Assembly (NCBI GenBank): GCA_019828565.1
Contig: JAHDYR010000035.1
Span: 142,672 to 206,671, forward strand
DNA length: 64,000 nucleotides
Direction: 5' to 3'
Source of the DNA: Carpediemonas membranifera BICM
Taxonomy: Eukaryota > Protista > Fornicata
Numbering within the stretch: position 1 is the stretch's first letter; every line of letters begins with the position of its first letter. Made by a program: the position numbers and the translations under genes. Positions 1 to 25,224 of this stretch are shown piece after piece. A model generated the notes under the pieces. That model did not search any database and had not been told where the DNA came from. It saw only the letters and a program-made list of their open reading frames with translations.

Positions 1-99
1 CTCTTGACATGAATCGCGGTACAGCCAGCCGTGAGCCTCCGCGTTGATGCACGTCTGCACCGCGGCCTCAGAGGTGATGCGAGTCTGAGTCTCGCTCAG

Positions 100-1297
100 T
101 CTGGATGGTGGGCGTCGCATGTGTTCTGCGTCTCCTCTTCTGCCCCTCACCCCTCTTCTCCTTCCGCCTCCTCCTGCTCCTCCTCTGTCTCCTCCTCTGA
201 GTCACCAGGCCTGGCAGCGGCTACTCGAGGCGTGATGAAGAGGGCCTTGCCTGAACGCATAGGCCTCGAGGCTCGTTCGTAGCGCGTCAGGGCAGGAAGT
301 CCTGGAAGCGTGCCAGACTGTGGCGGCATGTTGGCGGCGAACGAAACATCGCGGGAAGCAAGGTACCCAACGTCATGCTCACATGATGGATACGCCTGCA
401 CTCAGAAAGTGGTCTCTTCTCTCGTCACCTGCTTCTTCAGCCGCTCGACCTGCTCCTTGAGAGATGGATCTCCGTCTTCTGAGCAGAGATCCAGACTGGC
501 TGTCACGCGACGTGCGACTCAGGCTTCGGCAGGGAGTCTCGTGGTCAACGTCTTCTCGCCAGTAAGCGCTGCAGTATCGACGTCTGGTCGGCCCGTGCCA
601 GCGCTTCCCGAAAGCACGTGGTCGGCGTGATCTCGCGGGACGCGTTATCCCTGCATGAGCCACGCACGACAAGTACCGCAGATCTCGTCTGCTCTCGCTC
701 ATACCACATCATGCCGGACTCGCGCGCGTGTATTCCATCTCCTTTTCCAACTCCTCGGTCTTCCTCATCGGCCAGCTTCATCATCTGAACCCGAGTACAA
801 TCCCTGATGTCCTCGTCCTCCTCCTTCGCGAGTTCACACTCAAGCCTAGCGTTTGTCTTCATTCTAGCCCTCACGAATGCTCTTCTTCACCCGAATACGC
901 GCTCTCCACCTCGCCGTCGTACAGGGTGCGTGAAGGTATCCCCGCCGAGGACCTGCTTCAGTGTTTTCTTGTGTTCCCCTGTGACCCTTTCACCCCTCAT
1001 TCAATTTTCATCGTCGCCATAAACTGCGCCTTAAGGTCCTTCTTCGCTATCTTCTGTCTCCTGGCGCGTGAGGCGGAAGAACGTGGCAATACGCTTGAGA
1101 TTAACACCTGTGTAAACAATTTCGCTCAGTAACGTACGTTCCTTGATCACAGTAGCGAGTAAATCGCGCCTAGGCAGCAAAAGCGCGCGAAGGACGTCGC
1201 ATTTGCCTTTAGCGCTTGCAGCTGCATTGATCTTGGTCATTAGCTCCTTCTTCTCGAACTCAGTGGCTTCTTCCAGCCAAGTGAACAAGTCTAGCAT
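100..1297 (-). pseudogene. Fragmented coiled-coil/acidic protein gene
   Basis: Successive protein-like minus-strand ORF pieces (1031..1297, 545..874, 147..401 ending in EEETEEEQEEAEGEE) are separated by frameshifts and in-frame stops. The 3' limit is uncertain. Confidence 0.45.
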
Positions 1298-1305
1298 CGT
1301 ATATC

Positions 1306-1497
1306 GCCAAGAGACGTTAAATGGTTACTAAGAGTTTATGTATATCGCCTGCGGCTTGTCAGAACTCATACCGTGACTACCACCAGCCGTCATCACACCC
1401 CTAGCCCTACCCACACGTCCATTCTCGCCGATGCTGATTAAATCGTCCGGCCAGCGAGCCGGGGCCTTCGCAAATTTAATATGGCCAAGAGACGTTA
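1306..1497. promoter_or_regulatory. 14-bp direct repeat GCCAAGAGACGTTA (1306-1319, 1484-1497) just upstream of the ATG at 1297
   Basis: Two exact copies are visible; a regulatory role is inferred from position. Confidence 0.4.
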
Positions 1498-22417: not shown

Positions 22418-22506
22418 CACGTTATTATCACTTTGAATAAGCAATGAATGGTTATGCAACATCAGCACCTACCTACGAATCACAAGAATGCCCCTAGCAC
22501 GTCGTA

Positions 22507-22622
22507 TGCAAGCAAAAATGAGACTTACCCGTACCTTCCGCACGTTTCTCTACGTTTCACAAACGTTGGTGAAACGTGTGAAATAGTGAAAAAGATACGG
22601 GTGAATCTCATTTTTTCTTGCA
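22507..22622. repeat. 116-bp imperfect palindrome centred on AACGTT
   Basis: TGCAAGCAAAAATGAGACTTACCCGTA...ACGTTTCAC pairs with GTGAAACGT...TACGGGTGAATCTCATTTTTTCTTGCA. Confidence 0.9.
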
Positions 22623-22665
22623 GTTTCTTGTGCAAAAGGGTGTTTATCCTCCGTATATCCCCGGA

Positions 22666-25224
22666 TTAACTGGCCATTCTAACAGTATGCACGAGACCGA
22701 CAATGAGTTCATCGGTGACTGGCTGGAGCGATTTCGTCTTCGCGTCCGTTCTCGCAGCCCGCTTCCGTTCCGAAATCTTGTGGCCCAGCGCACGCCAGAT
22801 CGGATCCTCATCCGACACGACGACTCCACGAGACCGCGCGAACTCCCGCACGTTCGCACGATACTGGGCTACCGTCTCACCTCGAAGCCCCTTCGTCTCG
22901 GCGGAGTCGACAACAAACTCAACGAGCTGGGCAACCGTCGGTACCCAGGCATCCGCGCCATCCTGCGTCCAGCCACGCTCGGCAGCGAAGCGGATTATGG
23001 CCTTCTCAGCACTGACGCGCTTCCGAGCCGTTGCGTCCGTCAGCCCCGTCGCGAGGAAACTGGCAGACCGCGCAGACAGATCCGGTCCTGCGACTCGCTG
23101 CAGCCGCAGAGCCAGCTGCTCCTGGCTCTTCGACCGGGGCCGACCTGATGCACCCTCGCCCGCCTCCTCCTGTGACTCAGAGAGGACCAAGGTGTGGGAC
23201 TCCGCGCCGAGGGTGAGGTGGACGCGTATGCCGCTGTCCCGCATGAGGTTCCACCACGGAGGGAGATGCGCCGAGGCTGGGATCGTCACCTTCAACGTGG
23301 CCGGGCGAACACCTGTGGGTCGGTCGAACCACGCCCTGACGGCCTCATCCGCGGTTCCACCTGCGAACAGCACCCAGGACGCACCGGTCCATCGGGGCAT
23401 GACCGGCGACACGGCCCCGTACTGGTCACGAACACCGCTGATCGCTGCGTTGGCCAGCTTGTCCTCTCCGGCCAAGTCTGCCTGTCCGGTGACCTCGTCC
23501 AGCTGGGCCACCGACCCCTCTGTCACAGGCTGCCCCGACTCGTGGGCGGTGATGATGATGTCGCGCACGAGTGACGACCGCCCCTGGAAGTACGACGCGC
23601 CGCTCTCGTTCCTGGGCCGGCCCACCCACTCTGCGGGCGGGACCATCAGTGGGACAAGGTGCGGCTGCTGGGTTGAGAAGAACCTGGTGGTGAGGTCCCT
23701 CACGTCGCACTGTGCGGGGCGCCATGCCTTCAACGCGCTCGCCCGCTCCGACTCACACTCCGCGTACTGGAGCCGGGAGACGGCGTCTGCGATGTTCTCC
23801 GTTGTCGGGACGTAGAATACTAGAAGGTCAAGGTCCAGACGCTGGACGATCGACCACACCTCCTCGCAGCGCTTCAGGATGGGGGACGACTTGGTGAACC
23901 CCTTCCTCAGCGCATGATACGCGTTGGTGTTGTCGATGTACAGCGCTACGCTGGTGCCCGGGCGGACGTCGAGACGGTCGAGCGCCATGGAGACTGCCTG
24001 CACCTCCTTCGCCGCGATGATCTCGTCGGGGTCGGCCCCCTCCTGGGCCATCATACCAGTCCCAAGATCGATCGCTCCGAGTTGGCCATCCGAAGCATCT
24101 GTGGCCAGGACAAGGCCGAGCGGCCTGACGGCTAGGCGCCGCCAGGCGTTTGCCTTCGCCGCGTCTACGATCATAGCCGCCGCTGCCTTGGCAAACTCGT
24201 CGAGGTGGACCCTGGCACGCGTCCTGTGACCAGCTTCAGTCGCTTCTAGGCAGTGTCTGATGGGGGCTGCCCAGACGCGGACCATCGGGTAGGCCCAGTA
24301 AGCGAACTCCAACTTGCCTAGCAGCGTGCGAGCCTCCTGCATGCTGAGGGCAGCGCCGGGACGTAGCCATCCCTCCAGTGCCTGGACCAGGTACTCTGCC
24401 TTATCCGCCGGCAGCCTGACCATCTGCTCCGGGTCCGCCTGCCACTCCAACCCTCGGAACACGACCTGGTGGGCTGGCTGCCTGGTCTTCCGGGCCGACT
24501 CGGCGAACCCCGCAAGACGGAATGCGCCGATCGCCACGTGGGTATCCGTTGCGGCGGCGTCATCGATGAGGTGGTCGACGGAGACGCCGAGGGCCCGCAC
24601 TAGACCCACGACCGGCTGGGTGAGCATCGTGAAGGCCTCCGGAGAGGTGGAAGACCCCATGCTCAGCACCTTGAAGCGCCAGACGTCATCACCCAGGCGG
24701 AAGGCGAACCGATTGCACTCACCCTCGGCGAGCGGCACTTGGAAGAACCCTTTCTCGAGGTCCATAGTGCCCGCCTCACCTGCGCGGAGGAAGAGCGGCG
24801 GAAGCGGCTCGTAGGAGTAGCACCTGCGGCCCAGGTAGGTATTCTGATGTCGAGCATTGAGGATAGGACGCATTGTGCCGTCCTTCTTCATCTCAAGCCG
24901 GAATCGTCCAGTGACGATATCCCCTAGCTCGACATCCGGGACCCTCTCGGTGAACCCTGCCTCCTCGAGCTTGCGCGCCACCGCGAGCGCCTTGGGCAGC
25001 ATGTCTTCCGTGAGGTACCCCGCAGAGTCCTCATCGAATGGGGCGGGGGTGCCACCCACGGCGGCGTGTAGCCGCTCATGGCCCACTCGACGACCTCCTC
25101 TGGTGCGTTCATGGCGTCTAGGAAGTCGGGGTCCAAGGCGCCACCCGGGCGGAAGGGGACCTGAGGCGCCACCCTCAGTGTCTGCTTGAGCGTCTCCACG
25201 CACAATGGATCTGCTCCCTTCCAC
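22666..25224 (-). CDS. DIRS pol (RT/RNase H) in frame with a truncated YR core-binding domain
   Basis: MRPILN, DLEKGFFQVPL, LSMGSSTSPEAF, HLIDD, LATDAS, IAAKEVQAV, YIDN, YVPTTENIADAVSR, MPRWTGASW. The C-terminal ...ETVAQYRANV...LQPVTDELI stops before the YR catalytic domain. Confidence 0.85.
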   Translation of the reverse strand: MEGSRSIVRGDAQADTEGGASGPLPPGWRLGPRLPRRHERTRGGRRVGHERLHAAVGGTPAPFDEDSAGYLTEDMLPKALAVARKLEEAGFTERVPDVELGDIVTGRFRLEMKKDGTMRPILNARHQNTYLGRRCYSYEPLPPLFLRAGEAGTMDLEKGFFQVPLAEGECNRFAFRLGDDVWRFKVLSMGSSTSPEAFTMLTQPVVGLVRALGVSVDHLIDDAAATDTHVAIGAFRLAGFAESARKTRQPAHQVVFRGLEWQADPEQMVRLPADKAEYLVQALEGWLRPGAALSMQEARTLLGKLEFAYWAYPMVRVWAAPIRHCLEATEAGHRTRARVHLDEFAKAAAAMIVDAAKANAWRRLAVRPLGLVLATDASDGQLGAIDLGTGMMAQEGADPDEIIAAKEVQAVSMALDRLDVRPGTSVALYIDNTNAYHALRKGFTKSSPILKRCEEVWSIVQRLDLDLLVFYVPTTENIADAVSRLQYAECESERASALKAWRPAQCDVRDLTTRFFSTQQPHLVPLMVPPAEWVGRPRNESGASYFQGRSSLVRDIIITAHESGQPVTEGSVAQLDEVTGQADLAGEDKLANAAISGVRDQYGAVSPVMPRWTGASWVLFAGGTADEAVRAWFDRPTGVRPATLKVTIPASAHLPPWWNLMRDSGIRVHLTLGAESHTLVLSESQEEAGEGASGRPRSKSQEQLALRLQRVAGPDLSARSASFLATGLTDATARKRVSAEKAIIRFAAERGWTQDGADAWVPTVAQLVEFVVDSAETKGLRGETVAQYRANVREFARSRGVVVSDEDPIWRALGHKISERKRAARTDAKTKSLQPVTDELIVGLVHTVRMAS

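Follow-up and report, generated by a model that had tools for sequence, protein, structure and literature searches.

A probable composite of two sister giant CMCT-clade transposons in the metamonad Carpediemonas membranifera

A dense gene region that splits into two blocks

We analysed a stretch of 64,000 nucleotides (nt) from contig JAHDYR010000035.1 of Carpediemonas membranifera BICM, hereafter the window, whose first 22,689 positions hold a crowded set of genes around a truncated transposase. The species is a free-living metamonad with a genome of 24.2 Mb in 69 contigs (57.1% GC), and the available portion of the genome paper lists many canonical replication and segregation components as missing (PMC8516963). 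It serves as a model for how such genes are lost. Within positions 1-22689, 15 gene spans cover 77% of the bases, in agreement with the roughly 15 tightly packed genes described in a preceding sequence-only reading of the same DNA. GC content amounts to 52% in this region, versus 57-59% in host stretches and 64% in the adjoining retroelement. The region splits into block A (1-12454) and block B (12455-22689). We give a probability of about two in three to the reading that two sister giant cut-and-paste transposons of the CMCT clade (CACTA, Plavaka, Transib and RAG1 kin) are joined here as a composite.

A transposase with a predicted RAG1 fold

The transposase gene that opens block B has lost the part encoding residues 1-275. 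Its match to the full-length copy P0004 starts at residue 276, which corresponds to window position 12455. Moreover, frame breaks at two places near 13710-13770 shift the catalytic Glu out of frame in the assembly. This copy is presumably dead in its assembled form, and the element could move only with transposase supplied by another copy.

Neither a Pfam family match for the transposase nor any transposase family among 17 members was found, and its profile returned 0 matches against PDB sequences at E 10. A HMMER search of 1.84 billion representatives gave 18 matches, all with E 1e-13 or better. The 756 amino acid (aa) copy P0004 was modelled with AlphaFold from a 15-row alignment (pLDDT 80, pTM 0.72); the window's transposase as single sequence reached a pLDDT of 35. 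Foldseek matched the P0004 model to RAG1 (8e-9), BbRAGL (1.2e-7), HzTransib (3e-5) and the P element (2.7e-3). VIA on the same model ranked RAG1 at Z 15.3 (root-mean-square deviation 5.9, 440 aligned), BbRAGL (ProtoRAG) at 14.3, the P element at 13.7 and Transib at 10.4, the next match being at 7.2. Atlas neighbours were RAG1, Transposase_21, Plavaka and DUF1280, whereby the Plavaka structure row stayed under the bar. The catalytic D-D-E is invariant in all rows with a residue at these sites (14/14, 13/13 and 13/13). The model thus predicts a DDE transposase of RNase H fold with a RAG1-like insertion domain, and the RAG1/Transib-type fold proposed from the letters alone is corroborated by AlphaFold, Foldseek, VIA and the triad.

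Transib proper is another matter, and this part of the earlier proposal did not hold: there is no Pfam match, and the C(2)C/H(3-4)H motifs of the CMCT clade are seemingly absent. In a register set by eye from the motif patterns, they are complete in 0 of 13 rows. The first Cys occurs in 6 of the 13 and the second in 1, the first His in 8 and the second in none; in the same by-eye register the family of the window has none of the four zinc ligands. About a dozen further subfamilies (P0049-P0063, 22-31% identity to P0004) all lack complete zinc motifs. Judged from these alignments, the zinc motifs of the clade appear to have been lost in this lineage. Transib elements have a CAC terminus and a 5-bp target-site duplication; both ends described below read CAT inward, and the CAC terminus of Transib/RAG1 proper is not found. 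Features of Plavaka are missing as well, with no PF18759 match and ends of CATAC/CATGC versus TGT..ACA or CATCA..TGATG. As the PDB matches include no EnSpm or Plavaka structure, RAG1 as top match does not place the transposase within Transib. We file it as a new lineage allied to the CMCT clade, outside both Transib and Plavaka. The three C. membranifera families P0004, P0002 and P0048 are 44-59% identical and form one clade (support 100/100) in a tree of 15 transposase relatives, none of them a reference CMCT transposase.

The right end of block B and its probable target

One contig agrees with the window as far as 22689; beyond it come 194 further letters, the start of which is not present in the window. 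Sequencing runs X1 and X2 show identical figures here and were counted as one observation. At 22689 the GC content rises from 0.40 to 0.59-0.69. The sharp right edge noted earlier is therefore confirmed, its exact position being 22689 instead of 22680. The right end at 22689 and the likely one at 12454 both finish with TG-3', in line with the 5'-CA..TG-3' rule of the CMCT clade as far as right ends are concerned.

Directly behind this edge, at 22690, the long reverse transcriptase (RT) open reading frame (ORF) of a DIRS-like retroelement is cut. From a motif we presume that its recombinase domain would begin at the cut; searches there gave no tyrosine recombinase (YR) match. Of the cut DIRS recombinase proposed before, the interruption of the RT ORF stands, while the recombinase identity is a matter of that motif. 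No terminal repeats of the retroelement were found. Its neighbour is a kinesin gene (26446-29650, Pfam 1.5e-71), whose stop it directly follows.

The junction at 12454/12455

Three other transposase copies read through the junction between the blocks, and their first 275 residues are found nowhere in the 64 kb. The last 30 nt of block A resemble the end of block B. Aligned in register, the two share 15 of 30 positions, a level that 79 of 45140 background positions attain. The length of 30 nt was set after inspection; with 20 nt, the figure is 4376 of 45160. The first heptamers share 6 of 7 positions (58 of 45186 background positions as good). PHD1 and PHD2, both on the minus strand, start 513 and 522 bp from their respective block ends and are homologous (22% identity, pairwise E 2e-7). 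SET1 and SET2 are homologous as well (E 2e-6); the paralogous SET and PHD pairs are only 22-35% identical. Moreover, on two contigs, sister transposases of 44-59% identity are numbered 3-4 genes away from genes of block A (KAG9390935 to KAG9390938; J8273_5134 to J8273_5138).

We read this arrangement as element A nested in element B. The single element of more than 22 kb postulated by the sequence-only reading is not upheld, since the transposase is truncated by a second block that resembles a sister element. At 12447-12454, block A closes with codons for Q-H, the residues present there in intact copies, though shifted by one base from the frame of the transposase remnant. The junction site thus looks like a terminus of the element itself, as though a cryptic end had served.

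Copies and gene order elsewhere in the genome

Copies were mapped through protein clusters and locus tags and hence constitute protein, not DNA, evidence. An exact look-up of ORFs matched 7 of 10 in one set and 3 of 10 in another, the misses being mostly frame-broken or wrongly started ORFs. Eleven genes, including the transposase cluster, have copies on 10 different contigs of the 69 in the assembly, six of which measure 0.5-1.9 Mb. All named cluster members are from C. membranifera and show 97-100% identity. Cluster sizes (Table 1) go from 8 for PHD2 down to a single SET1 sequence, itself present on 3 contigs; the transposase cluster has 3 members.

The order of block B recurs on one contig as J8273_3980 (PHD2), J8273_3981 (protease), J8273_3984 (ORF15242), J8273_3985 (GNAT) and J8273_3986 (transposase), and in part as J8273_6718-6720, J8273_8450-8454 and J8273_7200-7203. 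On the level of clusters and tags this is the dispersed, multi-copy occurrence with conserved gene order expected of the CMCT clade. A single-copy region in conserved synteny, named beforehand as the case that would speak against a mobile element, is contradicted by the multiple gene copies and by the other flank of the right end elsewhere. Word-based homolog searches returned only C. membranifera proteins, and no DNA relatives were found in metagenome contigs or viral contigs.

Two further loci were noted. The clan-CD peptidase gene occurs in three truncated copies (J8273_8665, J8273_8671 and J8273_8674) on one contig, within a span of ten locus tags, which we read as a tandem or repeatedly nested cluster. 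In P0007 (J8273_6693) a copy of ORF7605 is joined to an unrelated N-terminus of 106 aa, where we assume a GIY-YIG-like motif; the fusion suggests another junction between elements.

Cargo genes, repeats and frame breaks

The features of the region are listed in Table 1.

Table 1. Features of blocks A and B and of the insertion target, with positions in the window.
Feature	Position	Strand	Evidence
Gene for helical/coiled-coil, acidic protein; likely micro-introns and frame breaks; cut by window edge	1..1297	-	six-frame read
413-aa protein, acidic tail, candidate YR-like DNA binder	2484..3725	+	4 cluster members at 98% on 4 contigs
Ser/Thr protein kinase, catalytic motifs present, C-terminal zinc ribbon	3900..5197	+	Pfam Pkinase 1.1e-19, DZR_2 0.002
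Intergenic repeat, copy 1 of 3	5304..5790	.	97.5-98.7% identity between copies
ORF5771, no assigned function, one frame break near 6750	5771..7088	-	3 cluster members, exact sequence on 3 contigs; J8273_5134, J8273_0917
Intergenic repeat, copy 2	7121..7600	.	repeat comparison
ORF7605, 200-aa protein, no assigned function	7605..8207	-	4 cluster members, exact sequence on 3 contigs
SET1, SET-like	8274..8990	+	EHMT1 SET domain E 0.13; homologous to SET2; exact sequence on 3 contigs
Intergenic repeat, copy 3	9023..9407	.	remnants: 20 nt at 10586, also 1912
HEPN-like gene, R-x4-H present, coiled coil, C-terminal zinc ribbon, frame-broken	9425..10460	-	Pfam HEPN families E 0.023-0.15, below cut-off
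PHD1, putative PHD finger	10754..11941	-	Pfam PHD 9e-4 (below cut-off); 2 cluster members on 3 contigs
Likely right end of block A (inward reading CATGCTG; CCGGG box at 26-30)	12425..12454	-	exactly where match to intact transposases stops
3' two thirds of DDE transposase, predicted RAG1 fold (block B)	12455..14167	+	96-98% to J8273_3986, J8273_4077, J8273_7203
GNAT-like acetyltransferase, micro-intron ~14462-14496	14292..15217	+	5 cluster members, one UniRef-named N-acetyltransferase; two exons; motif
ORF15242, basic helical protein, no assigned function, 1-nt frame break at 15918	15242..16006	-	6 cluster members; contigs without that base
Long protein, coiled coil, acidic tract, C-terminal OTU-like motifs	16698..18874	+	4 cluster members
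SET2, putative SET domain, intact N-H and C-terminal Tyr motifs	18899..19712	-	Pfam SET match below cut-off for both frame-broken halves (E 0.0027, 0.023)
Likely cysteine peptidase of clan CD (caspase/CHAT/separase fold), dyad motifs SGH and ATC	19897..20922	+	6 cluster members
PHD2, putative PHD finger	20947..22167	-	Pfam PHD_4 E 0.013 (below cut-off); 8 cluster members, exact sequence on 3 contigs
Right end of block B (inward reading CATACTG; CCGGG box at 26-30)	22660..22689	-	contig departure, GC step
DIRS-like retroelement, gag-like ORF and RT, likely target of block B insertion	22690..26330	-	Pfam RVT_1 6.6e-5, frame across 22689

The functional calls made earlier from motifs fared unequally. 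That of the kinase is firm; two frame breaks in homopolymers interrupt its gene. The SET, PHD and HEPN calls are weak, if coherent, their scores lying below the Pfam cut-offs, and the GNAT-like acetyltransferase, which has no Pfam or PDB match, owes its name to one UniRef entry and a motif. For the peptidase, Atlas leads to DUF6642 (0.90) and DUF6642/CHAT (0.85), which are leads only, combine with the His/Cys motif to suggest the CHAT/separase clan; Pfam and PDB gave no match and nothing specific to separase was seen. The OTU and inactive YR calls go back to motifs only, and the searches were negative. The protein at 16698..18874 may be an OTU-like deubiquitinase, as Cys and His motifs were recognised by eye; an OTU profile search gave no match. 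Its frame breaks at ~17768, where J8273_8451 reads through. Likewise, the 413-aa protein may be a tyrosine-recombinase-like DNA binder without the catalytic Arg, and no YR match was found in Pfam or PDB. A Cdc7-like nature of the kinase was rejected as unproven, as its PDB matches spread over many kinase families within 6 bits.

SET1 has the His of the N-H motif replaced by Asp, and its activity is doubtful as far as the residues tell. The gene at the window edge has no significant family match and is only presumed to belong to block A. The intergenic repeat of 385-487 bp is non-coding, has no Rfam match and separates the gene modules of block A. A contig that starts in copy 3 departs from the window at 9452. 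The repeat may be a cassette boundary for swapping cargo modules.

Host-style micro-introns, as claimed before, were supported at two places. Contigs of 4/4 runs, from at most 2 studies, lack the SET2 intron at 19219-19250 (minus strand, GT-AG), and ~14462-14496 is spliced out in annotated copies; two more are recognisable by eye only. The spliced SET2 contigs imply a transcript from some copy. The contigs stem from sequencing runs of which none is recorded as RNA (shares 0.07-0.19), and none of them spans the transposase or the 12454 junction, which says nothing on expression.

Many genes show 1-nt frame breaks relative to other copies, namely the kinase, ORF5771, the HEPN-like gene, ORF15242, the OTU-like gene and SET2. 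Contigs of the sequencing runs lack the extra base at 15918, 19376 and 19487. At these bases, either this copy has decayed or the repeat was misassembled. Imperfect intergenic hairpins occur in both blocks (2315-2518, 16327-16387, 16433-16497 and 22507-22622), one of them 70-180 bp inside the right end of B. Rfam gave no match within 1-27000, and long tandem arrays were not found.

One element, two elements or none

Directly seen are the multi-copy genes with their gene order, the right end of B, the truncation of the transposase and the splicing of SET2, together with the predicted fold and its triad. In the composite we propose, the region would hold the right-hand 10.2 kb of element B, likely inserted in the DIRS-like retroelement, and at least 12.5 kb of element A, the likely right end of A abutting the broken transposase gene of B. 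Several points weigh against this proposal. A left end, a pair of terminal inverted repeats or a target duplication is not in view, and the 64 kb window holds no inverted partner of either end. The end of block B is defined by one contig, the end of block A has no read support, and a transposase of block A's own was not identified. Copy counts were made without a single-copy host gene as control, and most cargo calls lie below curated cut-offs, their functions being assigned by sequence.

Further objections concern the junction itself. Just ahead of its last G, block A has 6 bases that encode Q-H, the pair of residues preceding the break in intact copies; hence a microhomology deletion within one element is possible. 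Copies of the YR-like gene adjoin the block B transposase or GNAT on two contigs (KAG9390934/935, KAG9392000/2001), and from the GNAT J8273_0910 to J8273_0917 the spacing is that of the window. Both fit a unit that includes the left genes. In such a case one CMCT family of more than 22 kb would carry all 15 genes, and the present copy would have lost the 5' part of its transposase by internal deletion or recombination, with the composite itself being copied. The GC contents of the blocks are alike (0.519 and 0.523), and the three near-identical repeats of block A show that recombination or duplication took place. We nevertheless consider this history unlikely. It leaves the end-like sequence exactly at the junction and the equal distance of a second PHD gene from it to be explained, the SET and PHD pairs are as dissimilar as in diverged sister elements, and none of the contigs with block B genes (925,995; 1,872,840; 50,407; 50,697; 179,508) lists a gene of block A.

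Large DNA viruses commonly carry kinase, SET and OTU genes. Dense, intron-poor genes of lower GC, five ORFs without an assigned family and a left part outside the window could also be reconciled with an endogenous DNA virus or a Polinton-like element, which would use the RAG1-fold transposase as integrase and carry capsid and replication genes further left. This is very improbable in our view, as Pfam, PHROGs and NCBIfam gave no capsid, PolB or packaging-ATPase match in the region, the five ORFs being judged by their sequences alone. PHROGs and NCBIfam yielded chance-level matches only, and the earlier statement that no capsid or polymerase gene is visible can be kept. Moreover, the transposase, OTU-like and YR-like proteins have no relatives in viral contigs, no viral fold matched under E 0.001, and spliced micro-introns and TG-3' ends of the CMCT type are at odds with a virus. 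Copies on six contigs of 0.5-1.9 Mb, a retroelement ORF cut at a sharp edge with another flank elsewhere, and the presence in this species of three or more sister transposase families likewise make it hard to believe in a host cluster of chromatin regulators with a domesticated transposase that was spread by segmental duplication or inflated by uncollapsed assembly. Such a cluster would agree with the spliced, expressed SET2, with 2 of 10 contigs of only 50 kb, with homopolymer frame breaks that suggest an imperfect repeat assembly and with other inverted duplications in the window; we give it hardly any credence.

A possible mode of action

Under the composite reading, an intact transposase would bind two-part ends formed by CATRCTG and the CCGGG box at 26-30. 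A transposase dimer would cut the element out by double-strand cutting and insert it by strand transfer with a short target duplication, as in Transib and RAG, whose biochemistry comprises end binding, double-strand cutting and strand transfer.

Given a transposon, we lean towards the cargo being a kit for self-protection that would hold the element's chromatin open and help it evade silencing, by analogy with the accessory genes of VANDAL, HarbingerS and Plavaka. PHD proteins would read histone tails, SET and GNAT proteins would write marks, and removal of ubiquitin would fall to the OTU-like protein. Targets of the kinase and protease would be host silencing or chromosome proteins, modified or cut so that the element stays transcribed and mobile. 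The SET gene and the terminal PHD gene were kept in both sister elements despite their low identity, which suggests that they have long been part of the elements under selection and were not captured recently. A role of the cargo in cell cycle or drive is speculation.

A bolder version seems quite unlikely to us. It holds that the region represents an undescribed metamonad lineage at superfamily level that abandoned the zinc site and carries a full kit for writing, erasing and reading histone marks plus a kinase and a separase-fold protease per family. Its cargo would rewire host chromatin or segregation to bias inheritance, and sister families would insert into each other's transposase genes at end-like sites.

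Other repeats in the window

A 1.69-kb inverted repeat of 98% identity (29970-31643 and 37237-38915) encloses an ABC transporter gene (31761-35438, two ABC_membrane_2/ABC_tran halves) and an ankyrin gene (35612-37063). Its arms contain fragments related to the ORF 39451-41115, and the unit is possibly a foldback or captured-gene element. Between a 398-bp inverted repeat of 96% identity with arms 21 kb apart (38955-39348 and 60266-60660) lie a 4433-aa ORF, a DUF229 gene and an L-type lectin gene. The 4433-aa ORF has no Pfam match; we assume a resemblance to TRRAP/PIKK-type proteins. A perfect 84-bp inverted repeat with arms 1.1 kb apart is located at 61718-61801 and 62945-63028.

Comparison with known systems

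Transib, RAG1 and ProtoRAG (HzTransib, BbRAGL) are the best structural matches and share the D-D-E and a two-part end of heptamer and inner box that begins with CA. Sequence identity to them is 10-14%, and they differ by the zinc-ligand motifs that are seemingly lost here, by the large cargo, by the absence of a RAG2-like gene among those seen, and by the terminus (CATRCTG versus CAC of Transib). One or two genes per element, the premise of the sequence-only reading, is right for Transib and does not apply to the wider clade, in which giant Plavaka elements of 17-19 kb carry a SET gene.

This case is found in the red alga Bostrychia moritziana, where giant Plavaka (EnSpm/CACTA) elements of 17.4-19.1 kb encode a SET-domain accessory protein proposed to modulate chromatin (bioRxiv 10.1101/2025.02.11.637652). 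A CMCT-clade DDE transposase, giant size and a SET accessory gene are common to both. In contrast, the available part of that account gives three accessory genes (one of no known function, a 6mA methylase-SET and a ParB/2OG oxygenase) versus 6 in the visible arm of B and 8 in A, and does not report PHD, GNAT-, OTU-, clan-CD-, kinase- or HEPN-like genes. Furthermore, the Carpediemonas elements have no Plavaka Pfam match, and their copies are young (97-100%) whereas those of Bostrychia are mostly degenerate. The same source cites VANDAL (Mutator) and HarbingerS as transposons with anti-silencing or SET-domain accessory proteins. They provide a model for cargo action and differ by transposase superfamily and by having one or two accessory genes.

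For the CMCT clade, the accessible part of Kojima 2025 describes 5'-CA..TG-3' termini, target-site duplications of 2-5 bp, C(2)C and H(3-4)H in all lineages, among them TET/JBP-carrying EnSpm, ESTA and PlavakaB, and TET/JBP carriers in fungi (PMC12730594). Termini, a RAG1-like transposase and the carriage of an epigenetic enzyme are shared with our elements, and PlavakaB ends (CATCA) also begin with CAT. Unlike there, no row has complete zinc motifs, the cargo appears directed at histones and ubiquitin instead of being a DNA dioxygenase, and the host is a metamonad. The Plavaka 'giant repeats' of the protist Amoebidium appalachense form intron-poor, transposase-flanked clusters of up to 50 kb with tyrosine-recombinase-like genes (PMC11244446) and resemble the present region in all these respects apart from their cargo: no chromatin cargo is described for them in the portion at hand, which does not define their ends either, and the KDM4-like genes there lie in giant-virus insertions.

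We found no description of Carpediemonas elements of this type in the literature covered, with Repbase and most subscription papers outside this coverage, and 'transpos' has 0 occurrences in the main text of the genome paper and its 10 searched supplements (PMC8516963). If our reading is correct, giant cargo-bearing CMCT transposons extend to Metamonada, and some SET, PHD, GNAT and kinase genes of the C. membranifera proteome are transposon cargo and not host machinery. The apparently zinc-free RAG1 fold matters for telling which RAG1 parts are ancestral and required. Given the youth of the families and the splicing of one SET gene, the anti-silencing idea is directly testable.

Taken together, the kind of element is already known. 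What we regard as new is a lineage invisible to profiles with apparently lost zinc ligands in a metamonad host, young copies, the nesting of sister elements, and 6-8 cargo genes per visible arm (writer, eraser and reader). This cargo is richer than in the cases compared, which carry 3 genes in the red-algal Plavaka and 1 in the fungal TET elements as far as the accessible accounts describe them.

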